Part shown: piece by piece, positions 16,893 through 47,185 of the stretch
How the letters are laid out: every line of letters begins with the position of its first letter
Numbering within the stretch: the first letter of the stretch is position 1
Made by a program: the position numbers and the translations under genes
The notes under the pieces: model-generated
Database searches by the model: none
What the model was told of the DNA's origin: nothing
Seen by the model: only the letters and a program-made list of their open reading frames with translations
Assembly: GCA_963805945.1 (NCBI GenBank)
Contig: CAWDVP010000004.1
Location: 1-64,000, forward strand
Length of the DNA: 64,000 nt
Direction: 5' to 3'
Source of the DNA: Vulcanimicrobiota bacterium
Lineage (GTDB): Bacteria; Vulcanimicrobiota; Vulcanimicrobiia; Eremiobacterales; Eremiobacteraceae

Positions 16893-17076
16893 GAAAGTCA
16901 CCTCCTAGAATTGCACGCGATAAAGAGGCTAGGGCGCTTGGAGAGGACGTAACGAAAACCCTATCAAGTCGAGCAGGCCACCAGACATTGACCTGGGGCG
17001 GCTGCCATAATGGTCGAAGCGCCGCCCATCCGATGCAGAGGCATCGACGAATCGCGAGGCGTACTCATCATGCCTC

Positions 17077-17136
17077 GGCGGTGGAGTCCGCCCAGCGCGT
17101 GTGCTGAACCGCCGCAAGCCGGCCAATGACTCCTGA
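17077..17136 (+). ncRNA. Fluoride (crcB-motif) riboswitch, variant
   Basis: GGCGGTGGAGTCCGCC...AACCGCC...GGCCAATGACTCCTG matches the GGCGATGGAGTTCGCC...AACCGC...GCTRATGACTCCT pattern; lies upstream of an antiporter. Confidence 0.85.
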
Positions 17137-17189
17137 ACGACGCGCAAACGCGCCTTCAGGAGGGAGATCCATGCGATCTTCGATTGGTC

Positions 17190-18353
17190 ATGCTCGATAA
17201 CGTCTGGCTGCTCGCCGCGTTGTGGATGGCACTCGCAGCGCTCGGCGCCGTCCTCTCGATCAAACTCAAGATCCCGGCGGCGCTCGCCGAGATCGCGCTC
17301 GGCATCCTCGCCGGCAACCTCATCGCGCTGCACTCGAACGCCTGGATCGATTTCGTGGCGGGCTTCGGCGCGATCCTCCTCACCTTTCTCGCCGGCGCGG
17401 AGATCGATCCTGCGATGCTGCGCAAACAGCTGCGTCCAGCCGCCGCGATCGGGCTGCTCTCGTTCGCGGCGCCGTTCCTCGGCGCGATGCTCTATGCGCG
17501 CTTCGTCGCGCACTGGGATCCAAACGCGGCCAAGATCGCCGGCATCGCGATGTCCACGACGTCGGTCGCGGTCGTCTATGCCGTGATGGTCGAATCGGGC
17601 TACGCGAAACAGGATTTCGGCCAGTTGATCCTCGCCGCATGCTTCATCACCGATCTCGGCACGGTGGTCGCGCTGGGCCTGCTCTTCGCCAACTACAACG
17701 CCTGGCTGGCGTTGTTCATCGGCCTTATGGTCGCGGCGCTTGCGCTCGTGCCGCGCGCCTTGCCAGCGGTCTTCCTGCGGATGGGCGACCGTGTCAGCGA
17801 GCCTGGCATCCGGTTGTTGTTCGCGGTGCTCTTCGTGCTCGCGGGCGTCGCCACGATCGCCAAGAGCGAGGGCGTGCTGCCCGCGTACTTCCTCGGGCTC
17901 ACGTGCGCGGGCTTCCTGCTGTCGCATCTCGATATCGCCCGCAAACTGCGCACGACCGCGATGAGCTTCCTCACGCCGTTCTATTTCATCAAAGCGGGCA
18001 CGCTCGTGTCGCTCACGCAGGCGATCGGCAGCCTGGGACTTATCGCCGCGCTCTTCATCGTCAAGGTCGGACTCAAGATCGCAGGCGTCTGGCCGGCAGC
18101 ACGCGCCTTCGGCTACTCGACGCGTGACGCGGGTTATGTGACGCTCATGATGGCGACCGGGCTCACCTTCGGCACGATCTCCAGCCTGTACGGGCTGCTG
18201 CACGGCTATATCGACCAGCGACAGTACACCGCGCTCGTCACCACTGTTATCCTCACGGCGATCGTGCCCACCTTCATCGCCGAGGCGCTCTTCCCGCGCG
18301 TAGAGCAGTTCAGCGAAGCGGAGTCGGGCGGTCTTGAAGAGGTCGAGGTCTAG
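17190..18353 (+). CDS. Cation:proton antiporter (CPA2 family)
   Basis: About 12 TM helices, FLAGAEID, STTSVAVV, FITD. Confidence 0.9.
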   Translation: MLDNVWLLAALWMALAALGAVLSIKLKIPAALAEIALGILAGNLIALHSNAWIDFVAGFGAILLTFLAGAEIDPAMLRKQLRPAAAIGLLSFAAPFLGAMLYARFVAHWDPNAAKIAGIAMSTTSVAVVYAVMVESGYAKQDFGQLILAACFITDLGTVVALGLLFANYNAWLALFIGLMVAALALVPRALPAVFLRMGDRVSEPGIRLLFAVLFVLAGVATIAKSEGVLPAYFLGLTCAGFLLSHLDIARKLRTTAMSFLTPFYFIKAGTLVSLTQAIGSLGLIAALFIVKVGLKIAGVWPAARAFGYSTRDAGYVTLMMATGLTFGTISSLYGLLHGYIDQRQYTALVTTVILTAIVPTFIAEALFPRVEQFSEAESGGLEEVEV

Positions 18354-23478: not shown

Positions 23479-24896
23479 CTACCCGATGGAGCCTTCCATC
23501 TCGAGCGCGATGAGCCGGTTCAGCTCGACCGCGTACTCCATGGGCAGCTCCTTGATGAAGGGCTCGAAGAAGCCGTTGACGATCATCGTCGTCGCTTCGA
23601 CCTCGGTGAGGCCGCGGCTCATGACGTAGAACAGCTGCTCCTCGCCGACCTTCGAGACGGTGGCCTCGTGCTCGATGCGCACGTCCTTGCGCGTCGATCT
23701 CCATGGTGGGATAGGTGTCGGAGCGCGACTCCTCGTCCATGAGCAGCGCGTCGCAGCGCACGTTGGACTTGCACGCCGTGGCAGCCTTCGTACACCTTGA
23801 TGAGGCCGCGGTAGCTGGTGCGGCCGCCGGCCTTGCTCACCGACTTGCTGGTGATGATCGAGGTCGTGTTCGGCGCGGCATGGATCATCTTCGCGCCGGC
23901 GTCCTGATGCTGGCCTTCGCTCGCATACGCGATCGAGAGCACCTCGCCGCGCGCGCCTTCGCCCACCAGGTACACGGAAGGATACTTCATGGTGAGCTTG
24001 GAGCCGATGTTGCCGTCCACCCACTCGACGTGCGCGTTCTTGTGCGCCATCGCGCGCTTCGTCACCAGGTTGTAGATGTTCTTATACCAGTTCTGGATGG
24101 TGGTGTAGCGGATGTGCGCGCCTTCCTTGGCGATGAGCTCCACCACGGCCGAGTGCAGCGAATTGCTCGAGTACGTCGGCGCGGTGCACCCTTCGATGTA
24201 GTGCACGAACGAGCCGGGCTCGGCGATGATGAGGGTGCGCTCGAACTGGCCCATGTTCTCGGCGTTGATGCGGAAGTAGGCCTGCAGCGGGATGTCGACC
24301 TGGACGCCCGGCGGCACCCAGATGAACGAGCCGCCCGACCACACCGCCGAGTTGAGCGCGGAGAACTTGTTGTCGGCCGGCGGGATCACGGTCGCGAAAT
24401 GCTCGCGCACGATGTCCTCGTGCTCGCGCAGCGCGGTGTCCATGTCGCCGAACAGGACGCCCTTGGCCTCGAGGTCCTTGCGGATGCTGTGATAGACGAC
24501 TTCCGAGTCGTACTGCGCGGTGACGCCGCCCAGGAACTTGCGCTCCGCTTCCGGGATGCCGAGCCGGTCGAAGGTGCGCTTGATGTCCTCGGGCACGTCG
24601 TCCCACGTCTTGCCTTCGCCGCGGTCGGATGCGCGCATATAATAGAAGATGTCCGCGAAGTCGATCGCCTCGAGCACTTCGTTCTTGGCCCACGCCGGGA
24701 ACGGCTTGGCGAGGAAGATGTCGAGCGACTTGTGGCGGAAATCGCGCATCCACTGCGGCTCGTTCTTCATCTGCGAGATCTGCTCGACGATGTCGTGGTC
24801 GATGCCCTTGCGCGACTTGAAGCTATAACTAGCGGTCTGGTCGTGGAAACCGTACTTATAGTCTTTGTCGACGAGCTGCTGCTGTTCGAGCGCCAT
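23479..24896 (-). CDS. sufB: Fe-S assembly protein SufB (frameshifted near the 3' end)
   Basis: [40 protein letters not shown]. Confidence 0.96.
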
Positions 24897-24910
24897 TTTG
24901 TTTCTTGCCT

Positions 24911-25673
24911 TTACGCCGGTGCGAGTTCTTTGATGATCGGATCGTAGCCGGATGCCTCGAGCTCGTGCGCGAGCTCCGGGCCGCCCTCTTTGACGATGCG
25001 GCCTTTGACGAGCACGTGGACGACGTCGGGCTTGACGTAGTTCAAGATGCGCTGGTAATGCGTGATGAGCAGGATCGAATGTTCCGGCGAGCGCTGCGCC
25101 TCGATGCCCTCGGCGATGATGCGCAAGCGCGTCGATGTCGAGCCCCGAGTCGGTCTCGTCGAGGATCGCGAGCGTCGGCTGGAGCACGAGCATCTGCAGC
25201 ATCTCGAGCCGCTTCTTCTCGCCGCCCGAGAAACCGTCGTTGACGTAGCGGCCCAGCGTCTTGGGCTCCATCTTGAGCTTGGCGGCCGCGTTGTCGAGCA
25301 GGCCCTTGAACTTGGCCGGCGTCAGCGGCGCATCGCCCTTGTGGCGCGCCATGAGCGTGTTGCGCATGAAATTGGCGACGCTCACGCCCGGCACGGCGGA
25401 CGGGTACTGGAAGGCCAGGAACATGCCGGCCAGCGAGCGCTCGTTGGGCGGCAGTTCGAGGATGCTCTTGCCCTGGAAGAAGATGTCGCCCTTGGTGACC
25501 GTGTACTTCGGATGCCCCATCAGGACGAGCGAGAGGGTGCTCTTGCCCGAGCCGTTCGGGCCCATGAGGGCGTGGACGGTGCCCCGCTCGATCTGCAGGT
25601 CGATCCCGCGGATGATCTCGTTGTCGCCGACCTTGACGTGCAGGTCGCGGATGTCCAGGATGATGTCTGCCAT
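24911..25673 (-). CDS. sufC: Fe-S assembly ATPase SufC (one frameshift)
   Basis: [38 protein letters not shown]. Confidence 0.96.
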
Positions 25674-27415: not shown

Positions 27416-27544
27416 GTAGGGCCGATCTTCGATCGGTCCTTCGCATATGTAGGGGCCGATCTTTAGATCGGCCCTTCGCATGTAGGGGCCGATCTTTAGA
27501 TCGGCCCTTCATTTTGGTGGGGCGACCTAAAGGTCGCCCCCTAC
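27416..27544. repeat. REP-A cluster: three tandem copies plus one inverted copy
   Basis: GTAG at 27416, 27449, 27482 (33-bp period); inverted copy ends with CTAC at 27544. Confidence 0.92.
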
Positions 27545-27946
27545 ATCCTTGTATGTCGGCCCAGCGATCATCGGCGCGCCCGCGTAGAAATCTCGTAGGG
27601 CTTCTTCGACCGTCAGCTCGTAGGCGGCGTGCTCGGCGTCCGGCGACGGCAGCGCCTTGACCGCGCCGCGCAGCGAATACGCCGCGGCATCCAACACGCA
27701 CCACAGCAGCGCGCTCGAGCCGCGACGGAGATTCCGCTCCGTGCTCGTGCCCGCGCGCACGGCGATCGCGACGCGCCGTTCGTCGATCGCCTTGATCTCG
27801 GTCGGCGCGAGCACCGCGACGCGCGGCCGCCCGTCCTCATCGACGGTGACGAGCAGGTGCGCGCGCACGGGCTCGCCGGCCGGCGTCTCGACGCCCATCT
27901 CGAAGCGCAGCGGCGGCGGGATCCTGTCGCCTGCGTTCTCCGACAT
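27527..27946 (-). CDS. Pyridoxamine 5'-phosphate oxidase-like (split-barrel) protein
   Basis: LVTVDEDGRP, TERNLRR. Confidence 0.7.
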   Translation of the reverse strand: MSENAGDRIPPPLRFEMGVETPAGEPVRAHLLVTVDEDGRPRVAVLAPTEIKAIDERRVAIAVRAGTSTERNLRRGSSALLWCVLDAAAYSLRGAVKALPSPDAEHAAYELTVEEALRDFYAGAPMIAGPTYKDVGGDL

Positions 27947-28581
27947 CAGCGGCCCACCAAGAACTGGTTCGTCGCGCGCTCGACGCCGATCGTCGTGCGT
28001 GGACCGTGTCCGGGCAGCACGATCGAGTCGTCCGGCAGCGTGAGCAGCGAGGTACGGATCGAGCGCAGGATCTGCTCCATCGAGCCGCCCCACAGATCGG
28101 TGCGGCCGATGCTCCCCGCGAACAGCGTGTCGCCCGCGAAGATCAGCGGCACGTCGTGCGGCGCGACGAACGACACGCTGCCCGGCGAGTGGCCGGGCGT
28201 GTGGAGCACGCCGATCTTCTCTTTGCCGAATTCGAGCGACTCGCCGCCGGTGAGATGCCGGTCGATCGTCGTGATCTGCGGCGCGGGCACGCCGAGCCAC
28301 TGCGCCTGCAGCGCGATGTTCTCGTACATCTCCATATCGCCCTCATGCAGCATCGCCGGCGCGCCGGTGAGCGCTTTGAGCTTGGCGATGCCGCCGACAT
28401 GATCGATGTGCCCGTGCGTGGCGACGATGGCGGAAACGGTGAGCCCGTGCTTCTCGAGCAACGCGGTGACCTTCTCGATCTCGTCGCCCGGATCGATGAC
28501 GATCGCCTTTTTGGTGGCCTCGTCGCCGAGGATGATGCAGTTGCACATGAGGGCGCCCACCGGCACGCTCGCGAGGATCAC
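27946..28581 (-). CDS. MBL-fold hydrolase, glyoxalase II-like
   Basis: THGHIDH, HTPGHSPGS, GDTLFAGSIGRTDL, PGHG. Confidence 0.92.
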   Translation of the reverse strand: MILASVPVGALMCNCIILGDEATKKAIVIDPGDEIEKVTALLEKHGLTVSAIVATHGHIDHVGGIAKLKALTGAPAMLHEGDMEMYENIALQAQWLGVPAPQITTIDRHLTGGESLEFGKEKIGVLHTPGHSPGSVSFVAPHDVPLIFAGDTLFAGSIGRTDLWGGSMEQILRSIRTSLLTLPDDSIVLPGHGPRTTIGVERATNQFLVGR

Positions 28582-28979
28582 GGCGCCCTTTTCCCTTTGG
28601 CGAGCGCCTTGGCCAGAAACGGCCTGGTCTCGACGATGAAGCGCTCGTGGGTGCCGGCGAAGCACGGCTCGACTTCGTCGTGCGCCTCGACGTCGAAGAT
28701 CAGCCGGCGGCGATCGATGTCTTTGAGCGTCGCGCGCACGTGGAAACGCATGCCCGCCGGCGTCGCCGTGAGGTGCCGCACGTCGAGCCTGATGCCGACG
28801 GTCGACTCGCCTGCGGCGAGATACGGCGCTACCAGGCGGACGCATTCGGCCTCCGCGAGGCGCACGAGGTGCGGGGTTGCGAGCACCGGCACGCCGGGGT
28901 TGCCGTAGCGGTCCGCGAGCCGCTCCTCGGTCGCGATGTAATCGGTGGTCGACGAGAGTCCGATCTTGAGTTGATGCAT
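28578..28979 (-). CDS. Hot-dog thioesterase, FlK-like
   Basis: VLATP..V..AE, TVG..LDVRHL.ATP.G, GTHERFIV. Confidence 0.88.
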   Translation of the reverse strand: MHQLKIGLSSTTDYIATEERLADRYGNPGVPVLATPHLVRLAEAECVRLVAPYLAAGESTVGIRLDVRHLTATPAGMRFHVRATLKDIDRRRLIFDVEAHDEVEPCFAGTHERFIVETRPFLAKALAKGKRAP

Positions 28980-29036: not shown

Positions 29037-30152
29037 GTGCAGTCATCCGAGATCGGGAGCGGCGCGACGGGCGCCGAGCTCGATCAGCGCATCCGCCGCT
29101 TCGTCGCCCGCAGCGATTCCAACGAGTTGGCGTTCGACCGGCTCGCGCTGGACCTCTTCGCCTACCAGTATGCGTCGGGCGACGTGTACCGCCGGTATTG
29201 CGATCGTCTGGGGCGCACGCCGGCGGACGTCCGGCATTGGGCCCAGGCGCCCGCATTGCCGACCTCGGTGTTCGCGCGCGCTCGGATCGCCTGCTTCCCG
29301 CCGGAGCGGACGCGTTTCACCTTTCTCTCCAGCGGCACGACACGCGCGACGCGCTCGCGGCTCGAGCTCGAGGACGCGGGTCTGTACGACGCCTCGTTGC
29401 TCACCCATTTCCGCGAGCGGGTGCTGCCGGATGCGACCGAGATCCAACTGGTCGCGCTCGCGCCTTCATCCGGCGATGCGCCGCACTCGTCGCTGTCGTA
29501 CATGCTATCGAAGATCAGCGACGTGTTCGGCACCGGGCGCGACCGTTTCTTCATGCGCGACGACGAGCTCGATTTCGAGGGCGCGTGCGCGGCGCTGCGC
29601 GCGGCGACGGCGCCGGTGCTCGTCATCGGCACCGCGTTCGCCTTCGTACATTTCTTCGACCGCTGCCATGCGGCGGGGCTGCGCTTCCAGCTGCCGCTCG
29701 GCAGCCGGGTCGTCGAGACAGGCGGCTTCAAAGGCAAGTCGCGCGAGATCGAGCGCGACGAGCTCTACGGCTGGTTCGCAAGCGTGCTCGGCGTGCCGCG
29801 CGTGCTGTGCCTGTCCGAATACGGCATGTGCGAGTTGGGCAGCCAGTGGTACGACGCCAACCTCGCCGACTATTTCGCCGGCCGCAGCGCGCGGACCAAC
29901 CTCAAGGTCGGACCGCACTGGGCGCGCACGCTCGTGGTGGACCCGGTGACCACGCAGCCGCTGCCCGACGGCGAGACCGGCCTGCTGCAGATCTTCGATC
30001 TGAGCAATCGCGGCTCGGTGGCGGCGATCCTGACCGGCGATCTCGCGCGCCACACCGGCGGCGGCTTCGAGCTGCTCGGCCGGGCGCCCGGCGAGCCGCC
30101 GAAGGGCTGCAGCATCGCGGTGGACGCGGCGTTGGAGCACACAGATGACTGA
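29037..30152 (+). CDS. LuxE-like acyl-protein synthetase
   Basis: FLSSGTT, ETGGFKG, SEYGMCELGSQ, TGDL, LLGR, C-terminal KGCS. Confidence 0.85.
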   Translation: MQSSEIGSGATGAELDQRIRRFVARSDSNELAFDRLALDLFAYQYASGDVYRRYCDRLGRTPADVRHWAQAPALPTSVFARARIACFPPERTRFTFLSSGTTRATRSRLELEDAGLYDASLLTHFRERVLPDATEIQLVALAPSSGDAPHSSLSYMLSKISDVFGTGRDRFFMRDDELDFEGACAALRAATAPVLVIGTAFAFVHFFDRCHAAGLRFQLPLGSRVVETGGFKGKSREIERDELYGWFASVLGVPRVLCLSEYGMCELGSQWYDANLADYFAGRSARTNLKVGPHWARTLVVDPVTTQPLPDGETGLLQIFDLSNRGSVAAILTGDLARHTGGGFELLGRAPGEPPKGCSIAVDAALEHTDD

Positions 30153-31320
30153 TGGAGCGGTCGAATTTATTCGACCGCCCGCGGGTGAGGCGCGCGCGGC
30201 ACTGATCGCGCGCGGCGCCGCGCAGTGGCGCGACTCATCTTCCGCCGTGCGGACCCACGCGCGCCGCGCGCTGGCCGGCGGCGCGTGGTCAGCACCGGCC
30301 GTCGAGGCGGCGCTGGACAACGTGCTGTGGGATCTCGATGAAACACGAGCGGCCGAGCTGGTCGCGCAGACTCCCGAGCTTCGCTCGGGCACTACAGTGC
30401 TCGTCGTGTTGCCGGGCAACATCATCGGCCCGGCCATCCAGTCCGCGTTCTGCGCGGCGGTCGCCGGCGCGCGGGCGATCCTCAAGGCGCCGAGCTCCGA
30501 GCCGGATATCGCGCGCATCGTCGCCGAGCAGTTCGCGCACCTCGGCCCACCGCTCGCGGGCAGCGTGGAGACCCGTTCGTGGGCCGGCGGCGACCTGGAT
30601 GCCGAAGCCGCGGCGCTCGCCGGCGTCGAGCGTCTCATCGTCTTCGGCGAGGATGAGACGATCCGCCAGATCAGCGCGCGCGCGGACGACGCGGTCGCGA
30701 TCATCGGCTACGGCGAATCCTACAGCATCGGCTTCGTGCCTGGGGGCTCCGATCTGGCTCAGGCAGCCGAGGCGGCGGCACGCGACGTCTGCCTTTTCGA
30801 CCAGCGCGGCTGCATGTCGCCGCAGAGCATCTATATAGAAGGCGACCGCGGCCGGTCGGTGCTGTTCGCACACGCGCTGGCGCGCGCGCTCGACGCGCTA
30901 AGCCGCATCTTGCCGTGTGCCCCGCTGCAACCCGGCGAAGCCACGCTGGTGAGCGACTTCGTCAGGCAGATGAACGCGGTCGCGATCGAGGCGCTGCCGC
31001 ATGGCCTCGACACGGTGCTGCGCGGCCCCGCACGCGACGGGGTCCCAGGGTACTGCGTCTCGGCGGAGGCCTTCGGGCAGCCGACGTGCGCCGGTTTCGG
31101 CCGCCTGGTGAGCGTCAAGCCGTGCCCGGATGCGCGCGACGTCGTCGCACAGCTCAAACATTACGGCAGAGCAGTTGAATCGATCGGCGTCGCCGCCGGC
31201 ACCACCGACAAGGATCTGACAGCGCTGCGTGCATCCGGCGCGCTGCGTCTCTGCACGCTCGGCGAAATGCAGCGGCCTCCGTTCGGCTATCGCCCGAAGA
31301 TCAGGGATTTCGAGCGATGA
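30145..31320 (+). CDS. LuxC-like acyl-CoA/acyl-protein reductase
   Basis: PGN, LKAPS, FGEDETI, catalytic FDQRGCMSPQ. Confidence 0.82.
   Translation: MTDGAVEFIRPPAGEARAALIARGAAQWRDSSSAVRTHARRALAGGAWSAPAVEAALDNVLWDLDETRAAELVAQTPELRSGTTVLVVLPGNIIGPAIQSAFCAAVAGARAILKAPSSEPDIARIVAEQFAHLGPPLAGSVETRSWAGGDLDAEAAALAGVERLIVFGEDETIRQISARADDAVAIIGYGESYSIGFVPGGSDLAQAAEAAARDVCLFDQRGCMSPQSIYIEGDRGRSVLFAHALARALDALSRILPCAPLQPGEATLVSDFVRQMNAVAIEALPHGLDTVLRGPARDGVPGYCVSAEAFGQPTCAGFGRLVSVKPCPDARDVVAQLKHYGRAVESIGVAAGTTDKDLTALRASGALRLCTLGEMQRPPFGYRPKIRDFER
30154..30178 (+). repeat. REP family B inside the 5' end of the luxC-like ORF
   Basis: GGAGCGGTCGAA-TTTA-TTCGACCGC. Confidence 0.75.
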
Positions 31321-32678
31321 GCGAGACGAGCGGCACGCAGCTCGGGCGCATCGTCGTCGAGCCGCCGGGGCCTCGCAGCCGCGCACTGTCCGCCCGGCTG
31401 CGCGAAGTGGAGCAGCGCAACGTCACGTTCCTGGACGAGGACTTCCCAGTCTTCTTCGAACGCGGCGCGGGCGCGAATCTCATCGACGTCGACGGCAACG
31501 TCTACGTGGACCTCACCGCCGCGTTCGGCGTCGCTGCCGCCGGGCACAGCAATCCGGCAGTGGTCGAAGCGGTCACCAAGCAGGCAGCGCTGCTGTTCCA
31601 CGGCATCGGCGACGTGCATCCGAACGAAGTCAAGGTCGCGCTGGCCGAGAAGCTGTGCGCGCTGACGCCGGGCGATGGCGCCAAGCGCGTCATCTTCTCA
31701 TCGACCGGCGCGGAGGCCGTCGAGTCGGCGATCAAGACCGCGGCGCTGGCCACCGGCAAGCCCGGCGTGCTCAGCTTCACCTCGGCCTACCACGGGCTCA
31801 CCTACGGTGCCCTCGACGCCACCGACCGCGATTTCTTTCGTGCGCCGTTCTCCAGACAGCTCGGCGGCTTCGCGCGGCGCGCACCCTATCCGTATTGCTA
31901 TCGCTGTCCGCTCGAGCTCACGTATCCGGCGTGCGAGAACGCCTGCCTCAGCTTCGTCGAGGAGGCGATGGCGGGCGAAGGCGGCGACCAGATCGGCGCG
32001 ATCATCATCGAACCCGTCCAGGGCCGCGGCGGTGACGTGCCGGCGCCGTTCGACTGGCTTCTCGAGCTGCGCGAGCTGTGCGATCGCCGCAAGCTCCTGC
32101 TCATCGCAGACGAGGTCTACACCGGCTTCGGCCGGACCGGCCGCTGGTTCGCCTGCGAGCACGCCGGCATCGTGCCGGATCTACTGTGCGTCGGCAAAGG
32201 CATGGCGTCCGGCTTTCCGATCTCCGCCTGCATCGGCCGCGCCGAGGTCATGGACGCCTGGCCGCGTTCCTCCGGCGAGGCGATCCACACGAGCACCTTC
32301 CTCGGTCACCCGACCGGCTGCGCCGCGGCGCTCGCCTCGATCGCGGAGCTGGAGCGGCTCGGCCTCGTGCAACGCGCGGCGACGCTCTCCGGCGATGTCG
32401 GCGAGATGCTTGCGCGGCTCGCCGAGAAGGTCGGTCCTGCCGTCGGCGACGTGCGCGGGCTCGGACTCATGTGGGGCATCGAGTTGGTGCACGAGGACGG
32501 CTCGCCGGATCAGCCGCGTGCCGCCGCGGCCGTCAATGGCGCGTTGCGCCGCGGCGTGGTCGTGCTCGCCGGCGGCCCCGACAGCAACGTCTTGGCCCTG
32601 TCGCCGCCGCTCGTGATCAGCCGCGAGCAGCTCGAATTCGGCGTCGATGTGCTCGCTGCGGCGCTCGCGGATGTGTGA
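31317..32678 (+). CDS. Class III PLP aminotransferase (GabT-like omega-transaminase)
   Basis: DVDGNVYVD, TGAEAVE, EPVQGRGG, DEVYTGFGRTG, PLP lysine in VGKG. Confidence 0.93.
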   Translation: MSETSGTQLGRIVVEPPGPRSRALSARLREVEQRNVTFLDEDFPVFFERGAGANLIDVDGNVYVDLTAAFGVAAAGHSNPAVVEAVTKQAALLFHGIGDVHPNEVKVALAEKLCALTPGDGAKRVIFSSTGAEAVESAIKTAALATGKPGVLSFTSAYHGLTYGALDATDRDFFRAPFSRQLGGFARRAPYPYCYRCPLELTYPACENACLSFVEEAMAGEGGDQIGAIIIEPVQGRGGDVPAPFDWLLELRELCDRRKLLLIADEVYTGFGRTGRWFACEHAGIVPDLLCVGKGMASGFPISACIGRAEVMDAWPRSSGEAIHTSTFLGHPTGCAAALASIAELERLGLVQRAATLSGDVGEMLARLAEKVGPAVGDVRGLGLMWGIELVHEDGSPDQPRAAAAVNGALRRGVVVLAGGPDSNVLALSPPLVISREQLEFGVDVLAAALADV

Positions 32679-32697: not shown

Positions 32698-32748
32698 TTA
32701 TGCACAACTCTTCCACAACAAAGTTTTTCAAACCGCCGCTTATCCACA
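32698..32748 (+). promoter_or_regulatory. Cluster of co-oriented DnaA-box-like 9-mers
   Basis: TTATGCACA (32698), TCTTCCACA (32709), TTTTTCAAA (32724), perfect TTATCCACA (32740). Confidence 0.65.
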
Positions 32749-32778
32749 ATTTAATGGCAAAACGAACAGTCGTTCCGC

Positions 32779-32807
32779 TTGTGCTGATTAAGGCCTGATT
32801 GTATACT
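32779..32807 (+). promoter_or_regulatory. Sigma70 promoter
   Basis: TTGTGC-N17-TATACT. Confidence 0.7.
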
Positions 32808-32813
32808 GCCACT

Positions 32814-33067
32814 ACACCGACCGCGGTGCCGGGGAAGCGAAGCAACAACGGATGGTGCGAGTGCAATCGCACAGAGCTGAGCGCCTCGGGAATGGTACCC
32901 CTGCCGTTGGGGACTAGGCTTCCAGCCCAGTGATGGCCCTGGGGATCGCGTCCCAGTAAAGCCAAAGTAAGCGAACCGGCAACGGCCGTTGACCAGTTCG
33001 AAAATGAGGCTTCCGCGCCATCGACCAGACCAGTTACGACCGGGCTCACGCCCGGTCGTTACTGTTT
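32814..33067 (+). ncRNA. Unidentified structured RNA (sRNA or cis-regulatory leader)
   Basis: Promoter upstream, terminator-like hairpin downstream, 5'/3' closing helix and five internal hairpins; no credible ORF. Confidence 0.6.
33031..33067 (+). terminator. Intrinsic-terminator-like hairpin
   Basis: ACGACCGGGC-TCAC-GCCCGGTCGT followed by TACTGTTT. Confidence 0.6.
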
Positions 33068-33074
33068 CCGGGGT

Positions 33075-34394
33075 ATGACATCGGCCCGGCTCTCGCGAAG
33101 AACTGCCGACGTGTCCTCGTCGCTGCAAGAGACCGCCGCTCCGTACGAAGCGCTCATCGAGCAACCCACCCCCCACGCCCGCGCGCGCTACGGCGCGTTC
33201 GCCTACCGCGAGTTCCGCCTGTTGTGGTTCGGCCTGCTCGTGTCCAATACGGGCGGCTGGATGGCCATTCTCGCCCAGGGCTGGCTCGTCGTCGAGCTGG
33301 CGCCCAACGCGGCCCTCGCCTCGCTATACCTCGGCCTGGTGGGCTTTGCGCGCGCGGTGCCCGTCTTCGCGCTTTCAGGCGTCGCAGGGGCGCTCGCCGA
33401 CCGCGTCGATCGCCGCCGTCTCCTCGCGGTCAGCCAGGCCGTGCTCGCGTTGCTCACCCTCGCACTCGGCATGCTCGCGCACACCGGCGCGGTGCGCGTG
33501 TGGCACGTGCTCGTCATCGCAGCCTGCTCGGCCGCCGCGAGCTCGTTCGAGGCGCCGACGCGGCAGTCGCTCGTCTCGATCCTGGTGGGTAAGCGCGAGC
33601 TGATGAACGCGATCGGGCTCAACTCCGCGGCCTTTAACGCCCCCGCGATCGTCGGACCGGCGCTCGGCGGCATCGTGGTGAGCGAGTACGGCGCAGCGAC
33701 GTGCTTCTTCATCAACGCCGCCTCGTACGCGGCGGTGCTGGCGGCCGTGCTGCTCATGAAGCCGAAACCAGCCCTCGGGCCACCGCCAGAGCACGACATC
33801 TGGCATGACGTCATCGAAGGCTTCCTTTATGTACGGGCCAACACGCTGATCTTCGCGGTGCTCGGACTAGGCGCGCTCCAGGCGCTCGTCGCCCGGCCCT
33901 ACATGCAGCTGCTGCCGGCGTTCTCGAAGTCGGTGCTCGGGGGCAATGCTCGGGAGCTGGGCATCCTCATGGCCGTGGCGGGCGCCGGAGCGCTCGCAGG
34001 CTCGATCATCACCGCGTTCCTCGGCGCCCGCCAGCCGCGCGGGCCGCTCTTGCTCGGCACCGCGGCCGCATCGGGCCTTTTCCTCGCCCTGCTCGCTTTC
34101 ACCAAGACGATGTGGCCTGCGGCGATCGCGCTGCTATGTCTCGGCACCGTCGCCATGCTGTTCTTGGGCACGGCGAACACGATCTTGCAGACGCACACGC
34201 CGATGGCGATGCGCGGGCGCGTCATGTCGATCTACACGATGATCTTCTTGGGCTTCATGCCGCTAGGCTCGTGGCTGCTCGGCTCGATCGCCAGCGTCAC
34301 CTCGCTGCCGGTGGCGTTCGCGCTCGGCGGCGCCGTGTTGATCGCCGGCGTGGCGATCACCGCGCGGCGCGCCGACGTCCGCGCCCTGACCTAA
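33075..34394 (+). CDS. MFS transporter (H+ antiporter/macrolide-efflux-like)
   Basis: FRLLWFG, GALADRVDRRR, MRGRVMSIY; about 12 TM helices. Confidence 0.9.
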   Translation: MTSARLSRRTADVSSSLQETAAPYEALIEQPTPHARARYGAFAYREFRLLWFGLLVSNTGGWMAILAQGWLVVELAPNAALASLYLGLVGFARAVPVFALSGVAGALADRVDRRRLLAVSQAVLALLTLALGMLAHTGAVRVWHVLVIAACSAAASSFEAPTRQSLVSILVGKRELMNAIGLNSAAFNAPAIVGPALGGIVVSEYGAATCFFINAASYAAVLAAVLLMKPKPALGPPPEHDIWHDVIEGFLYVRANTLIFAVLGLGALQALVARPYMQLLPAFSKSVLGGNARELGILMAVAGAGALAGSIITAFLGARQPRGPLLLGTAAASGLFLALLAFTKTMWPAAIALLCLGTVAMLFLGTANTILQTHTPMAMRGRVMSIYTMIFLGFMPLGSWLLGSIASVTSLPVAFALGGAVLIAGVAITARRADVRALT

Positions 34395-38136: not shown

Positions 38137-39153
38137 TACGAGAGCGGCCCCGACGCGTACACGTGCGTGTACAGGTCTGCTTCGGTCGGCGTGCGGCTGC
38201 GCCTCGGCCCAGTCGGTCGCCTCTTCGACTTCTTTCTCCATCTGCGCGCGCACGTCGGTGAAGAAGTCGTCGTCGGCGAGCCCGCGGTCGCGCAGCCATG
38301 CTTCGAACTTCGGCAATGGGTCGCGTGACTTCACCGACTCGATCTCGTCGGGCGTGCGATAGGTGAGCTGATTGTCGTCCGAGGTGTGCGACATCGCGCG
38401 ATAGCACTTGGCCTCGACCAGCGTCGGTCCGCCGCCGCTGCGCGCGCGCTCGACCGCCTCGTGCACGACCGAGTACGTCATCACCGGATCGGTGCCGTCG
38501 CAGATCATGCCTTGCATGCCGTAGCCCGCCGCGCGGTCGGCGACGTTGTGGATGGCCATCTGCATCTTCTGCGGCACCGAGATTGCGTATTCGTTGTTCT
38601 CGCACAGGAACACGCACGGCACTTTATGGATGGCGGCGAAATTGAGCGACTCGTGCCATTCGCCTTCGCTCGTCGACCCCTCGCCGAACGTGATGAGCAC
38701 GACCGCTTGCTCCTTGCGCATCTTGAACGCGAGCGCCATGCCGACGCCGTGCGGGATGTGCGCGGCGATGATGCTCGAGATGCCCGCGATGTTGCGGTCC
38801 GGCACGCAGTAGTGGTTGGGGAACTGCCGACCGCTCGAGAAGATGTCGCCTTTGCGCGCGAAGAGGCACATCAACTGCTCCTTCGCGGTGACGCCGTACG
38901 ACAGCGCCAGGCAGGTGTCGCGGTAGTACGGCACGACCCAGTCGGTGCCGGCATGCAGGGCGAACGCGGCGCCCGCTTGGACCGCCTCGTGACCCTGGCA
39001 GGTCGCGGCGAAGGGGATCTTGCCCTGGCGGTTGAGCGCGAACGCGCGGTCGTCGCACAGCCGCGTCAAGAGCATCTTGGAATACATCTCGCGCAGACGC
39101 TCGGGCGTCAATCCGTCCGGCAATGCCGCACGGATCCGAGGCTCACTCTTCAT
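38136..39153 (-). CDS. 2-oxoacid dehydrogenase E1 alpha (resembles the branched-chain type)
   Basis: TPP motif FGEGSTSEG...NN, PYYRD, HTSDD. Confidence 0.92.
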
Positions 39154-39209
39154 AGGCGGGTTGGTTTCTCCCAGGCGCGGCGCTTCCCCTTACGCGCGCT
39201 TGTTTGAGA

Positions 39210-41375: not shown

Positions 41376-43917
41376 TCAGCGGCGGGGGCGGCCGTTCTTG
41401 CGCTGTTCCAGGTCGGCGAACTTCGAGAGCAGCTTCGCGTTCGCGGCGCGCAGCTCGTCGATGTCGAGCCGCAGCCGTTTGACCTCGTCCGATTGCGCGG
41501 TGCTCGAGCGGATGCGCTGCGCCGCTTCGACCGCCATGGTCTTGAGCCGTCCGTCCACGTCGAGCCCGGCGATGCGGTCCAACTCGGGCAGCGCCGCCGT
41601 CGCGCCCAGCGCGCCCAGCGCGTGGATGGCCGCGGTTCGGACGCGCAGCGCCGGGTCGTGCAGCAGATCGACGAGCGCGTCGACGACATCCTTGCGCCGC
41701 TCGCCGAGCTTCCCGAGCGCGTGGACCGCCGCCCGGCGCGCTTCGAGCGGCCGGCCGTAGGCGGTCCATTCGAGCGCGATGGGGATCGCGCGCTCGTCGC
41801 CGAGCGAGCCGAAGCCTGCGAAGACGCCGCAGCGTATCACTTCGTCGAACGATTCTTTGGATAGCGCTTTGCGCAGCAGGTCGAACGCCCGCTTCGACTT
41901 CGTGCGGCCGATGGACGCGGCGGCGGCCTCCTCGACGAAATATGACGGATCGGATGCGAGCAGCGGTTCGAGCGCGCGGCACGCCTCGTCGCCGCGGAAC
42001 TCGCCCAGCGCCGACGCGACCGCGCGGCGCGCTTTCGGATGCGCGACCTTGCGTCCGCGGACCAGCGCCGCGAACGCGGCGTCGGTCTTGATCTGGCCTA
42101 GGGCCGCGGCCGCTTCCGCGCGGACGCCCCAGAACGTGTCGCCCTCGAGCGCGGCGGCGAGCCCCTCGACGACGTCAGGCGCCGCATCGCGCGCGAGCGC
42201 GCGCGCGGCCGCGACGCGTGCGCCGACCTGCGCGGCGTGGCGCAGCTGATGCAGCAGCATCGCGCGCGGCACGTCGAGCTTGACGGTCTTCGGCACGTCG
42301 GCGTTCGGATCGAAGGCGAACGCTTCCGGCCGCGCGGGCAGCGGGAAGCGGAACGATTGCTCGCGCGCGTCGCACAGCTCGCGGCGCGTCTCGCGTTTGC
42401 CGCGCGGCAAGGTGAACTCGAAATCGATGGGGACGGCGAAGAGCGCGGTGGCGTCGTTCGAGCCCTGCGTCTGCTTCACGTCGACGACCGCGGCTTTGGC
42501 CTCTGCATCCCAGCGGTACGCGACGGTGAATTCAGGGTGGCCGGCGCCGAACACCCACTGGTCGAAGAAGCGCGCGAAGTTGACGCCCGCTCGCCTTCTC
42601 GACCGCGCGCGCGAAGTCGACGGTCTCGACGCTGCCCTGCGCGTGCTCGGTCACGTACTGCGTTGATGGCGCGCCACCACAGCTCGTCGCCCAGCTGAGT
42701 GCGCAGCATGTGCAGCACGGCGCCGCCCTTCTCGTAGAGGTGGCGGTCGAACAGATCGGCCGGCTCGAGGTACACGCTTGTGACGATCGGACGCCGATAG
42801 TGCTCGCTGTCCTCGCGCTGATAGGAATCCTGATTGATGATGGCGCGTAGGCGAACTCGTCTTCGCCGTGCTCGTGCTCTTTCCACAGCAGCTCGAAGTA
42901 GGTCGCGAACCCCTCGTTGAGCCAGGCGTGCGCCCAGTCCTTGCAGGTGAGCAGGTCGCCGAACCATTGATGGGCCAGCTCGTGCGCCACGAGCGGCTCG
43001 CTCGAATAGTCCTTATGCGCGCGCGCGTCGTGCAGCGTCGCATCGGTCTGCGTCGTGCACGACGTGTTCTCCATGCCGCCGAAGATGAACTCGCGCACGG
43101 CGATCTCGGCGTACTTCGCGTAGGGATACTTGTAGCCGATGCGCTCGTTGAAGAAGCGCAGCATCTTGGGCGTCTTGCCGAACGAGCGCAGGCCTTCAGC
43201 CTCGCGGCCCGGCTCGACGTACCACGACACCGGCACGCCGTCCGCCATGGTCGTGCGGCCGACGAACTTGCCCGCCACCACGCTGATGAGATAGGTGACG
43301 TGCGGGATGTCCATCTTCCAATGATAGGTCGTGGTCTTGCGCGCCTTGTCCGTCTCGGTCGACACGAGCGCGCCGTTGCTGAGCACGAAGAAGCCGGCAG
43401 GCACGACGGCGATGACCTCGCTCGTCGCCTTCGCGTTGGGATGGTCGACGCACGGGAACCAGTAGTGCGCGTCGGCGTCCTGGCCTTGCGTCCACACCTG
43501 CAGCGGCCGTTTCGGATAGCCTTTGTCCGGTCCGATGAAATAGATGCCTTGCTCGGGCTGGTGCACCTCGTAGTCCACCACGACCGTGGCGGACTTGCCG
43601 GCGGCCAGCCTCGGCAACTCGATGCGCAGCTGATCGCCGACGAGATCGAACGCGACCCGCTTGGCGCCGACGCGGGCGCTCAGGATGCGCATGCGCCCGG
43701 CTTGCAGTTCTAAAGAAGAGAGCGGACCGCCGACCGCGGTCACCGTCGTGGTGCAGCGCCCGTACAAGATCTTGCGCTCGAAATCGAAGGACAGCTCGAG
43801 CTTGATGTGGTCGGTCTGCGCCCGCCGGTCGGGCGCGTAGTGCTGCGTGCTGGGGGGTAGGGCGAACGCGCGGCGCCCGGATCCGTCGGCGGTGCGGCGC
43901 TTGCTGCGAGTGGTCAA
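41376..43917 (-). CDS. pepN: M1 aminopeptidase N with C-terminal HEAT repeats (frameshifted)
   Basis: GGMEN, HELAHQWFG...WLNEGFATY, YEKG; TTG start overlaps the EF-G-like stop. Confidence 0.9.
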
Positions 43918-45981
43918 CGTGCGGCCACCGCTTCCTTGCGCTCGGCGGTCACGCTCTGCGTGACCTTCGGCGGAGCGAACTCGAAGTGGTCGTGCTCGGC
44001 GCTGAAATAGCCGAGGCCCTGCGTCGCGGTGCGCAGTTCGGTGAGATAGCGCGGCAGTTCGGCCTGCGGCACGAGCGCGCGCACCACATCCCAGCCGCTG
44101 CGCTCCTCGCTCGCGCCGTAATTGAGGATCTGGCCTCTGTGCCCTGAGACCTGCTGCAACACGGTGCTGGTGAAGTGGGTCGGCACCGTGACCTCCACCT
44201 TCATGATCGGTTCGAGCAACGCCGGCTGGCACTTCGGCAAACCCTCGCGCATCGCGAGCGACGCGGCCGAGCGGAACGAAGCTTCGTTCGAGTCGACGGT
44301 GTGGTACGAGCCGTCGTAGAGCGTGACATGGACGTCGACGACGGGGAAGCCGGCGATCGGCCCCTTTTCGAGCGCCTCGCGCACGCCTTTCTCCACGCCC
44401 GGGAAGAACTGCTTGGGCACGACGCCGCCGACGATGCGCTCGTCGAACTTGATGCCGCCGCCGCGCGTCTGCGGCTGGATCTCGATGTGGACGTCGCCGA
44501 ACATGCCGTGGCCGCCGGTCTGATGTTTGTAGCGGCCCTGTTGCGTCGTCTTGGCGCCGATCGTCTCCCGGTACGGCACGGTCGGCAGATGGGTGTCGAG
44601 CTTGACGCCGTACTTGCGCTGCAGCCGCTCCACCGTCACGCCGAGATGCATCTCGCCGTGGCCGCGCAGCTGGAGCTCTTCGGTGAACGGGGCGCGCTCG
44701 GCGGTGACGCTTGGGTCTTCTTCTTTCATGCGCACGAGCAGCTGCGACAGCTTCGCTTCGTCCGCGCGATCGTGCGGGCGTATGGCCAGCGCGAAGGAGG
44801 CTTTGGCGGCCTGCGGCACCGGCATCTGCGTCTTGGCGTTGCCGGCGCACAGCGTGTCGCCGGTCTGCGTCGAATCCAGACGTGAGATCGCGACGATGCT
44901 GCCCGGCCCCGCGCTCGTCACCGATGTCTGGTTCTTGCCCTGCAGCACGAACAATCCGCCCGGCCGTTCTTTGGATTCCGGACGCCCGGGGTTGAGCAGC
45001 TGCGTGTCGCCTGCGACCGTGCCAGCGAAGATGCGCGTGACCGAGATCTTGCCGCTTTGCGGATGCACGAACGTCTTGCAGACCTGCGCGACGAGCGGCG
45101 CTGCCGGGTTGGGCTCGACCGGTTTGCCCGCCGCGTCGACGCGCGGCGTCAGCAGCGCGTCGGGGAACTGCGTGAGGATCATCTTCAGGAGCTGCGGCAC
45201 GCCCCAGCCGCGCACGCCGGCGGCGACCAGCACGGGCACGATCTTGTCCGCGCTCACGTCCGCTTCGAGGTCGTGCTCGACCTCGTCGACCGGCGGCTCT
45301 TGGCCTTCGAGGATCTCTTCCATGAGATGGTCGTCGAAGTCGGCGAGCGCTTCGAGCAGCTCTTCGTGGGGTTTGTCTGCGAAGTGTTCGGGCAGCGTCG
45401 ACGCGGTCGTCGCGCCACGCGTCGCCATACGCATACGCCTGCAGCGTGACCACGTCGACGTAGCCGGCGAGATTCTCGCCCTGGCCGATCGGCAGCTGTT
45501 CGGCGACGACGTGGTTGCCGAAACGCTGGCGCAGCTGCGCGTAGGTCGCGGGGAAATCCGCGCCGGGCCGGTCGAGCCGGTTGATGACGAAGCAGTGCGG
45601 GATCTTGCGCGACTCGAGGTGATCGACGAGGATCTCGACCTGCGGCACGCGCGCCGGGTCGGCTTCGACCACGATGACCGCCGCGTCGGCGCCGAGCAGC
45701 GCGAGCTTCGTCTCCTCAAAAAAATCGACTGCGCCGGGGCAGTCGATGATGTTGAGGCGTCCGCCGTCCGTCTGCAGGGTCGCGAAACTCGGAGCGACGG
45801 ACATCTGGTGCGCGTGCGATTCGGGATCGTGATCGGTGGTCGCGGTGCCGTCCGTCACCAGCCCTTTGCGCGGTATGGCGCCGGTGTGCGCGAGCAGCGC
45901 CTCGACGAGCGTCGTCTTGCCGCTATGATGCGGTCCGACGAAAGCCACGTTTCTGATACCTGCGGCCGCGGGCGTAGCCAT
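43914..45981 (-). CDS. Elongation factor G paralogue (EF-G2-like; frameshifted)
   Basis: GPHHSGKTT, DCPG, GEMHL, KHQTGGHG, DGSYHTVDSNE, LLEPI. Confidence 0.92.
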
Positions 45982-46143: not shown

Positions 46144-46831
46144 ATGCTTGCGACCGCGACGCTGCGCGTCAACGAAACGTTCCTGTCCGTGCAGGGCGAG
46201 GGCAGCGCGATCGGCGCGCCGACGTTCTTCATCCGCTTGGACGGTTGCCCGCTGCGTTGCGCGTGGTGCGATACGCCCTATGCGCTCGCCGGCACTGCGG
46301 GGGTGGAGACGACGCCCGAGCAGCTCGTCGCGCGCAGCGCCGGCGCGCAGCGCATCGTCATCACCGGCGGCGAACCGCTCGCACAGGATATCGGTCCGCT
46401 CACGGCTTCGCTCGCCGGCCGCCATATCACGGTCGAGACCAGCGGCACGATCTTCGCCGATCTTCCCGTCGTCGCGCTCTTCTCGATCAGCCCGAAGGTG
46501 GGCAGTTCGGGGTACACGCCAAAGCCGGCCACGCTGCGCAAGTTCTGCGCGAGCGCCGCGGGCCGCATGCAGCTCAAGTTCGTCATCGCCGACGCGCGCG
46601 ATTATGAAGAAACATTGGCGTGCGTCGACAGAGCCTCGCCGATGCGCTCCCGCCGGCACGCCCATCATCTTGCAGCCGGAGAGCGCGAGCGCCGGCACGG
46701 GCGACGCATACGTCGGCGCGCTGCGCGCGCTGACCGAGAAGACGATCGCCGATGAACGCTGGCAGCGCTACGACGTGCGCGTGCTGCCGCAACTGCATCA
46801 CATGTTGTGGGGCGGAGAGCCCGGCCGATGA
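46144..46831 (+). CDS. queE: 7-carboxy-7-deazaguanine synthase (radical SAM; frameshifted)
   Basis: ETFLSVQGEG, CPLRCAWCDT, TGGEP, ISPK, PQLH. Confidence 0.92.
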
Positions 46832-47185
46832 TCTCGATCTCGCTCGTCTGCGATTTCGACGCCGCGCACCGGCTCGTGCTGCCGTACGAATCGCCGTGCA
46901 CGCGGCCGCACGGCCATCGCTATCAGGTGGAGATCGCCGCGTCGGCGCAGCAGCTCGAGCACGGCATGGTGGTGGACTACAACATCCTCAAAGAGGTCGT
47001 CGCCGGCGTACGACCACGTGGACCTCAACGCGCTGCCGGATTTCGCCGAACTGCCGACGACCGCCGAGAACATCGCCGTCGTGCTGGCGCGCAAGCTGCA
47101 GGCCGCCGTCGGGGCGCGCGTGAGCATCGATGAAGTGGTGGTGCGTGAATCGCCGCTGACCGCGGCGCGCTGGAAGAAGGGCTGA
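46828..47185 (+). CDS. queD: 6-carboxytetrahydropterin synthase (frameshifted)
   Basis: FDAAHRL, CTRPHGH, PTTAENIA, VRES. Confidence 0.9.

Follow-up and report, generated by a model that had tools for sequence, protein, structure and literature searches.

The window considered here, the whole 64,000-nt stretch of Vulcanimicrobiota DNA that was analysed, contains an operon for a LuxE-like protein, a LuxC-like protein and a class III transaminase. The question raised by this locus is which acid such enzymes would act upon, and to what end. The data presented below make it probable that the three genes replace QueC and QueF, with 7-carboxy-7-deazaguanine (CDG) being converted, via an aldehyde, to preQ1. 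Features of the window are listed in Table 1.

Table 1. Features in and around the three-gene operon, with positions numbered from the first base of the window
Feature	Position	Strand	Length	Profile matches and remarks
FlK-like thioesterase	28578-28979	-		FlK 105 bits (cut-off 27)
LuxE-like ORF	29037-30152	+	371 aa	PF04443; GTG start
LuxC-like thioester reductase	30145-31320	+	391 aa	PF05893; C-terminally shorter than LuxC
Class III PLP transaminase	31317-32678	+	453 aa	PF00202; distinct clade
MFS gene	33075-34394			MFS_3 216 bits
queE (CDG synthase)	46144-46828	+		Profile matches at 46144-46635 and 46640-46828; one frameshift
queD (6-carboxytetrahydropterin synthase)	46843-47170	+		PF01242 at 46843-47010 and 47006-47170; one frameshift

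The three intact reading frames are real, as an earlier note on this DNA had held: they are open on the plus strand and overlap by 8 nt (luxE-like/luxC-like) and 4 nt (luxC-like/transaminase). Its observation that the catalytic residues are retained was also borne out. The KGCS motif of the LuxE-like protein (K356-G357-C358-S359) aligns with the KGCS of Photobacterium LuxE (7XC6_E), and K232, R349 and C358, invariant in 21 class members, align with LuxE K238, R355 and C364. In the LuxC-like protein, C223 of DQRGCMSP aligns with the catalytic cysteine (C296) of LuxC (7XC6_A) and is invariant in 24 aligned rows; the PLP lysine of the transaminase, K294, is likewise invariant. The LuxE-like protein scored 59.9 bits with PF04443 (cut-off 24.9) and the LuxC-like protein 113 bits with PF05893 (cut-off 21). 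Neither reached the cut-off of the corresponding equivalog, the scores being 59.5 versus 550 bits for NF052244 (long-chain-fatty-acid--protein ligase) and 59.8 versus 750 bits for NF052251 (long-chain-fatty-acyl-CoA reductase).

With the LuxC-LuxE system of luminous bacteria (7XC6; PMC9157457) the pair has in common the two folds, the equivalents of these residues and the adjacency and fusion of luxE and luxC, and a CoA-independent relay through the C-terminal cysteine would be expected here as well. Unlike that system, the genes of the window occur without luxAB or luxD and are coupled to a transaminase and to que genes. The absence of luxA, luxB and luxD, previously noticed in the window, was upheld: no match to PF00296 (bacterial luciferase) was found in the window's genome, which is 82% complete, Pfam scans of 54 (45 + 9) ORFs of the window gave no LuxD family member, the remaining ORFs between 19600 and 41300 having been read by eye, and neither luxAB nor luxD was found among the conserved operon neighbours.

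The operon is single-copy and is retained class-wide. In all 37 flanked loci, which were selected on contig size from 57 genomes with a match and which represent three families (17 loci from the window's own family, f1, and 20 from f2 and f3), the transaminase gene follows the luxC-like gene, so that the arrangement is not a matter of chance. Fusions were also observed among the best 150 representatives at the 50% level, joining the transaminase to LuxE in four cases and LuxC to the transaminase in one. The synteny comparison that had been suggested for the three genes therefore favours them: gene order, fusions and the presence of LuxE in 49 of the 50 genomes from other groups that have the transaminase support a functional link. 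The three-gene operon is, however, not the general form. luxE is located elsewhere in 5 of the 20 f2/f3 loci, and in loci from a pattern scan (an estimated 2600 or so matching stretches in 185,579 species genomes; 116 of the 120 loci returned belong to the transaminase clade) that are outside the class, the distance between the transaminase gene and luxE is 8 kb or less in only about 6 of 66.

It is apparent that the class has queuosine genes with a gap among them. All 70 genomes of the class, that of the window included, have both the LuxE clade and QueE; QueF was found in none, and QueC over its cut-off in none (two weak matches). QueD and QueA were present in all five genomes tested, as was QueG (two of its five being of the window's class); Tgt is present in G000 (the window's genome), G002 and G032, and GUN tRNA genes (Asn, His, Tyr) are present. 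In the window, queD lies directly behind queE and its product has the CxRxHGH motif. Three points count against this picture, namely that queED is situated 13.5 kb downstream of the operon, that queE and queD are each interrupted by a frameshift in this assembly, and that intact QueE orthologues, although they match QueE models best, score under all QueE cut-offs. In the 51 genomes from elsewhere in the phylum, the LuxE clade was never found (three weak matches), and all 13 genomes with a QueE match also have QueC. Since 22 of these 51 have QueC and only eight a strong QueF, the absence of QueF alone is a poor marker.

The same pattern was observed in the 50 genomes of other groups, which were picked from the 120 pattern-scan loci. 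Most genomes used in this analysis are metagenome assemblies, with related genomes counted as separate and completeness values covering genomes outside G143-G302. Alongside LuxE, the 50 genomes have QueE in 46 cases and QueA in 46, with QueC over the cut-off in two and a strong QueF in one (G172), which is the genome that has no LuxE match. As a control, 111 genomes were taken to represent the phylum to which G191 belongs, a cultured carrier of the clade without QueC whose record is titled Luteolibacter sp. AS25; the clade was found in two of them, neither with QueC, and QueC in 88 of the other 109. Some results run against the pattern: 10 of the 46 QueE matches are weak (E 1e-11 to 1e-20), four genomes have no QueE match, the clade and a full QueC occur together in G165 and G188, and weak QueC-like matches were found in G049, G125, G161 and G175.

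Physical linkage to que genes was also observed. In 22 of 77 pattern-scan loci queE is closely followed, on the same strand, by the transaminase gene, with fewer than 200 nt between them in 20 of the 22; the titles of the records name Verrucomicrobiota, Oligoflexus/Oligoflexaceae, Deltaproteobacteria and Methylomirabilota. Of 20 luxE loci, five have the order luxE-luxC-queD and two a luxE-luxC fusion ahead of queA, and G175 and G189 contain queE-transaminase-luxE clusters.

In the proposed route, CDG, the product of QueE, would be adenylated by the LuxE-like protein and bound in thioester linkage to the C-terminal cysteine of that protein. After transfer to the LuxC-like protein, reduction at the expense of NAD(P)H would yield 7-formyl-7-deazaguanine, which the transaminase would aminate to preQ1; Tgt, QueA and QueG would then convert preQ1 to queuosine in tRNA. 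From the observed homologies, catalytic residues, linkage, fusions and matching pathway hole, we infer every substrate, product, cofactor and amino donor of this scheme. Predicted entry (CDG) and exit (preQ1) are those of the canonical FolE-QueD-QueE-QueC-QueF route (PMC11130926, PMC13602947), of which QueD and QueE, with Tgt, QueA and QueG, are present and QueC and QueF were not found. In contrast to that route, the intermediate would be an aldehyde instead of preQ0, and the enzyme folds are unrelated. A highly diverged substitute for QueC or QueF may sit elsewhere in these genomes. No published account of a LuxE/LuxC/transaminase route to preQ1 was found in the main text of the open-access literature.

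The linkage data show an association with que genes and not a reaction, and the genes could accordingly serve 7-deazaguanine metabolism with a different outcome. The product could be something else, such as an amide, alcohol or substituted amine; CDG could be a substrate for just two of the enzymes; or a nucleotide or tRNA-bound form could be the one acted upon. This is unlikely. It would accommodate two unusual residues of the Tgt pocket motif in the window's own genus, Val158 and Trp232, and also the Gfo/Idh/MocA oxidoreductase gene that follows the transaminase gene in 16 of the 20 f2/f3 loci; the oxidoreductase is, however, absent from the 17 f1 loci. QueA needs the aminomethyl group of preQ1, and its presence in 46/50 and 5/5 genomes, with QueG in 5/5, argues for preQ1 itself. 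Also in favour of the proposed route, V233, which in Zymomonas Tgt excludes queuine as a substrate, is kept in all six Tgt sequences compared. Against it, Cys158 of Tgt is replaced by Val in G000 and G002, and the same replacement in the Zymomonas enzyme lowers preQ1 affinity about 18-fold; the four other sequences keep the Cys.

The earlier note had proposed that LuxE and LuxC reduce a fatty acid and that the transaminase forms a fatty amine or aminolipid from the aldehyde, with the FlK-like protein as a LuxD-like acyl supplier and the MFS protein as exporter. Of this, the linked genes stand and the acid-aldehyde-amine logic is likely to hold; a fatty acid is an improbable substrate, however, and the proposal as a whole is very unlikely. 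LuxCE are indeed the sole characterized homologues and the best structural match, and single-copy conservation would suit a core lipid. The chemistry itself is known from tambjamine synthesis, in which TamH, and TabE (first annotated as an ALDH) with TabA, also proceed from thioester to aldehyde to omega-transamination (bioRxiv 10.1101/2025.08.11.669332). There, in contrast to the single-copy, class-wide operon of the window with its LuxE activator, a C12 chain carried by an ACP is processed by a secondary-metabolite cluster; no ACP-tethered acyl or bipyrrole cluster was found among the 30 conserved neighbours scanned (ORFs of at least 80 aa).

A fatty product would account neither for the adjacency to queE, queD and queA nor for the exclusion with queC; the genes track the queuosine pathway. 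The predicted structure of the LuxC-like protein (pLDDT 91) has 7XC6_A as its best structural match (Z 32.5, rmsd 2.9), with 364 residues aligned (model 11-391 on 62-453) at 18% structural identity. The last residue of the model, 391, corresponds to LuxC 453, so P460-P488, which in LuxC closes the L-shaped acyl cleft of more than 40 Å, is absent from the window's protein as modelled. The roles suggested for the two flanking genes were rejected as well. The FlK-like gene is found beside the operon in 6 of 17 own-family loci, in none of the 20 loci of the other two families and in none of 77 pattern-scan loci. The corresponding counts for the MFS gene are 17/17, 0/20 and 2/77, and a conserved promoter-RNA-terminator unit, a separate transcription unit with a predicted RNA of 250 nt at 32812-33066, lies between it and the operon. 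The thioesterase and MFS genes are local neighbours only.

Salvage of thiamine, in which the pyrimidine acid PCA, an orphan product of thiamine degradation already described (PMC11223231), would be reduced and aminated to an aminomethyl pyrimidine, is highly improbable. Among annotated proteins, the closest LuxE relatives (35-40% identity) are encoded in luxE-luxC-SDR operons that are under TPP riboswitches (5/6) and are accompanied by NMT1/THI5 binding proteins. In a quick tree (SH-aLRT, midpoint root) the LuxE proteins under TPP control group as one branch among those linked to the transaminase. No TPP riboswitch was found, however, in the window or in any of four class loci scanned, no known RNA or riboswitch was found in the operon region, and no transporter or thi gene is among the conserved neighbours. 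In the oarX-type operons under TPP riboswitches (PMC11223231), the related LuxE-LuxC pair precedes an SDR (giving an alcohol), in place of the clade transaminase of the window operon. The main text of that paper names no Lux protein; the logic proposed for these operons is reduction of a heteroaryl acid, and OarX gave negative results when tested in Corynebacterium. The relatives in these operons with NMT1/THI5 proteins point to small heteroaryl acids as substrates of the LuxE branch and in this respect favour the CDG reading.

It is reasonably likely that the preQ1 route is a second de novo route present in at least half a dozen phyla, that the sister TPP-riboswitch branch salvages oxidized thiamine fragments, and that luciferase-free LuxCE proteins are chiefly heteroaryl-acid reductases. 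If the preQ1 route is correct, new chemistry would be added to a pathway treated by reviews as complete (QueD, QueE, QueC, QueF), and many soil and freshwater bacteria would be reclassed from preQ1 scavengers to producers. A function would be provided for many luxCE genes without luciferase and for an uncharacterized transaminase clade, and a cascade that turns heteroaryl acids into amines without CoA or a carrier would be of interest to biocatalysis.

A role in amino-acid semialdehyde conversion (lysine from aminoadipate, ornithine from glutamate, GABA from succinate, β-alanine from malonate) would suit the closest solved structures, which are GABA transaminases of about 40% identity, but is scarcely credible: 71/71 transaminases have another residue where GabT has the arginine that binds the carboxylate, the genome has other class III paralogues, and such a role would give no reason to expect linkage with que genes. 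The transaminase scored 341 bits with PF00202 (Aminotran_3; cut-off 30.5) and fell below the cut-offs of all NCBIfam models listed, including those of GabT (338 versus 507 bits) and ArgD (271 versus 410 bits). With GabT (4ATP, 1SF2) and ArgD it shares the class III PLP fold (TM-score 0.90, with 4ATQ as the match), about 40% identity and the PLP lysine; no solved structure of a clade member was found. In contrast to these enzymes, the clade, with its motifs HGMGDVHP, YHGL, EPIQGRGG and GEAIHTSTF, has YHGL in place of YHGR, the arginine of which we take to be the carboxylate- and GABA-binding residue of GabT, and EPxQGR in place of the EPxQGE of GabT. Arg at 161 was found in 0/71 transaminases and R237, at the position of the switch Glu, in 71/71, and E32, H95, D99 and W315 are invariant within the clade. 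Judged by these scores and residues, the transaminase is neither a GabT nor an ArgD orthologue.

Scans of IMG/VR with the LuxE alignment and of GenBank phages found no viral copy, and a search of sequencing runs listed no RNA run carrying the operon. A motif scan of viral sequences returned one short locus, and the IMG/VR scan with the transaminase returned eight loci at 28-39% identity, taken to be generic class III enzymes. The plasmid search with the transaminase gave GabT-like matches only, of up to 41%. The clade is currently annotated as GABA transaminase.

A re-reading of the window sequence bore out the earlier description of three open frames with 8-nt and 4-nt overlaps and their named motifs. 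In a profile search, each protein scored above the Pfam cut-off for its frame (LuxE, LuxC and Aminotran_3), and all three fell far under the cut-offs of the NCBIfam equivalogs LuxE, LuxC, GabT and ArgD. Alignment to the Photobacterium complex 7XC6 placed C358 of the luxE-like protein at LuxE C364 and C223 of the luxC-like protein at LuxC C296; K232 and R349 of the former correspond to the K238/R355 pair required for adenylation by LuxE, according to the accessible part of PMC9157457. Luciferase, already noted as absent from the window, also gave no family match in its genome. The best-matching proteins bear names indicating Eremiobacterota/Vulcanimicrobiota.

A luxC-like match was present in 57 of 61 related genomes (G010, G013 and G016 are no more than extra rows in this count, and carry no claim). 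A synteny check upheld the linkage of the genes: the transaminase gene follows luxC in all 37 flanked loci (17 from the window's own family, f1, and 20 from two other families, f2 and f3). luxE lies inside the same 13 kb in 17/17 f1 and 15/20 f2/f3 loci, and elsewhere in the genome in the remaining five. The FlK-like thioesterase, proposed as a LuxD-like acyl supplier, adjoins the operon in 6/17 f1 and 0/20 f2/f3 loci, and the MFS protein, proposed as exporter of the product, is encoded beside it in 17/17 f1 but 0/20 f2/f3 loci. The MFS gene is likely a separate transcription unit, because the interval between it and the transaminase gene holds a conserved promoter followed by 250 nt of structured sequence and a terminator. 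Neither the FlK-like nor the MFS gene is part of the three-gene system. A Gfo/Idh/MocA oxidoreductase gene follows the transaminase in 16 of the 20 f2/f3 loci (L031-L050) and in none of the 17 f1 loci.

The phylum sample comprised 121 genomes, 70 of the window's class and 51 others. The LuxE clade and QueE occur in every sampled genome of the class (70/70 each; 69/69 if the unpublished genome G013, counted here, is left out), and QueF (0/70) and QueC above cut-off (0/70; two weak matches) were not found there. QueD and QueA were each found in 5/5 genomes tested, QueG in 5/5 of a mixed set, and Tgt in the genomes where tested. None of the remaining 51 genomes yielded the LuxE clade (three weak matches); QueC is present in 22 of them, including all 13 with a QueE match. 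This class-versus-rest comparison is one single phylogenetic contrast. The frameshifts and the out-of-frame or fused frames of the window (see table) are probably insertion or deletion errors in the assembly, as relatives carry undamaged queE and queD.

The distinct class III transaminase clade is widely distributed, as determined by profile search. Five of the 150 best representatives are fusions, four of them transaminase-LuxE and one LuxC-transaminase, and two of the five have a second cluster member. A motif scan of species genomes yielded 120 loci from 3/64 parts (extrapolating to ~2600 stretches), labelled by depositors' record titles, some apparently wrong; 116 belong to the clade. In 22 of the 77 flanked loci queE is just upstream of the transaminase gene on the same strand; in about 11 the arrangement is that of the window, luxC preceding the transaminase gene, and luxE lies downstream in six others. 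Twenty luxE neighbourhoods with long flanks included five with luxE-luxC-queD and two with a fused luxE-luxC upstream of queA. Fifty genomes behind the motif-scan loci, picked for spread and for the length of their contigs, were searched; LuxE was found in 49, QueE in 46 (10 weak), QueA in 46, QueC above cut-off in two and strong QueF in one (G172), the sole genome without LuxE. The QueF match of another, G154, is barely above cut-off and covers the first 59 positions only, as do weak matches in 16 other genomes; it is likely FolE. A control set of 111 genomes, sampled as G191's phylum and of unstated completeness, includes two with the clade, neither of which has QueC; among the remaining 109, QueC occurs in 88. 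QueC or weak QueC-like genes cluster with queD in genomes G188 (L219/L223, with queE also) and G161 (L222), which also carry a LuxE-type set; these genes are possibly acquired deazaguanine islands.

The observed homology, catalytic residues, gene linkage and pathway hole suggest that the three genes probably replace QueC and QueF, the standard enzymes, in making preQ1 from 7-carboxy-7-deazaguanine (CDG, the QueE product) via an aldehyde, every substrate and product being predicted. CDG and ATP would give CDG-AMP on the luxE-like protein and then a thioester on C358; the acyl group would pass to C223 of the luxC-like protein, be reduced by NAD(P)H to 7-formyl-7-deazaguanine, and be transaminated to preQ1. 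Among the points weighing most against this route are that the operon is divided in most other phyla, that two genomes carry the clade together with a QueC system, and that the absence of QueC/QueF rests on assembled metagenomes. Another deazaguanine product is improbable. No publication describing a LuxE/LuxC/transaminase route to preQ1 was found in the literature searched; the available portions of PMC11130926, PMC13602947 and PMC6593275 give QueC-QueF only. Because PMC6593275, in the same portion, counts gut Akkermansia among queuosine producers, no claim is extended to A. muciniphila.

The earlier note had read the operon as a LuxCE-based route from a fatty acid to a fatty amine or aminolipid. 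The operon is real and the acid-aldehyde-amine chemistry was judged probably right; the fatty substrate was not, given the que linkage, the QueC/QueF hole and the structure of the luxC-like protein. Its model (pLDDT 91) best matches 7XC6_A (Z 32.5, rmsd 2.9, 364 residues) and ends at LuxC 453, so the equivalent of P460-P488, which closes a >40 Å hydrophobic cleft in LuxC (PMC9157457, in part), is missing. Chemical precedent for the fatty-amine model is offered by a tambjamine preprint (bioRxiv 10.1101/2025.08.11.669332, in part). LuxCE is portrayed solely as a fatty acid reductase in the accessible text of PMC12041015. A fatty amine is very improbable here. The system resembles LuxCE plus omega-transaminase in its predicted working logic (acid to aldehyde to amine) without belonging to the lux system.

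Plasmids of Pantoea, Azospirillum, Priestia, Niallia, Pseudomonas and Lactiplantibacillus (L068-L073) encode the closest LuxE relatives with annotation (35-40% identity), with the order luxE-luxC-(transporter)-SDR at the four annotated loci, the transporter being NMT1/THI5 ABC or NCS2. A TPP riboswitch lies upstream in 5/6 of the plasmid luxE-luxC loci, and NMT1/THI5 binding proteins are encoded at two; these suggested small heteroaryl acids, which turned attention to CDG as a candidate substrate. The plasmid operons likely serve in salvage, converting a fragment of oxidised thiamine from acid to alcohol, and in a quick tree their LuxEs form one branch among the transaminase-linked LuxEs; as the role of the three-gene system, thiamine salvage is most unlikely. 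oarX is treated without LuxCE, and these plasmid operons go unmentioned, in the part of PMC11223231 (2024) available. A distant luxE-luxC pair (L312-L314; genomes G105, G089 and G094), in the other part of the phylum, lacks the transaminase; its LuxE forms a separate branch, with no C-terminal GCS motif matched.

The transaminase model (pLDDT 90) has the GabT fold, with YHGL in place of YHGR and EPxQGR in place of EPxQGE. In GabT, the YHGR arginine binds the GABA carboxylate and the EPxQGE glutamate is the switch Glu; an amino-acid semialdehyde route is, likewise, most unlikely. E32, F70, H95, D99, Y158, R237 and W315 are invariant across 71 loci, as are E321, H324, T325 and T327, the latter imposed by the search pattern. 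None of the solved structures falls within the clade.

Tgt V233 is kept in 6/6 sequences, which argues against direct queuine salvage by these Tgts. The window's own genus has Val at Tgt position 158, which reduces preQ1 affinity in Zymomonas Tgt (PMC3660597, in part). The base pocket in that genus (L076, L310) reads DDV for DEC (Val158) and GGLWVGE for GGLAVGE.

Coordinates of the operon and of other elements in the window
Feature	Position	Strand	Remark
luxE-like gene	29037-30152	+	
luxC-like gene	30145-31320	+	
Transaminase gene	31317-32678	+	
queE and queD	46144-47170	+	One frameshift each
Out-of-frame or fused housekeeping frames	23479-25673, 36-38 kb, 42532-45981		sufC/sufB, dehydrogenase subunits, EF-G/peptidase M1
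Conserved non-coding unit	32740-33066	+	Between transaminase and MFS genes; conserved across f1 loci
TTATCCACA	32740		In the unit; DnaA-box-like
GAAC-N4-GTTC	32764		In the unit; resembles a Bacillus-type LexA box
Fluoride riboswitch	17068-17142	+	Upstream of Na+/H+ exchanger family gene, 17184-18350
Repeated palindromic elements	~27450-27545		REP-like; between STAS gene and next gene

The conserved non-coding unit, single copy in the genome and present in 17/17 f1 loci, comprises, besides the two sequences in the table, a TTG..TATACT promoter, ~250 nt and a terminator. It was not found in f2/f3 loci, nor by BLAST in three f2 genomes, and had no match in Rfam. Compensatory changes occur in 21/63 predicted pairs of the ~250-nt stretch, a candidate new structured RNA; 6S RNA and tmRNA are located elsewhere. 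Sequence near 39150-39200 is similar to the palindromic elements.
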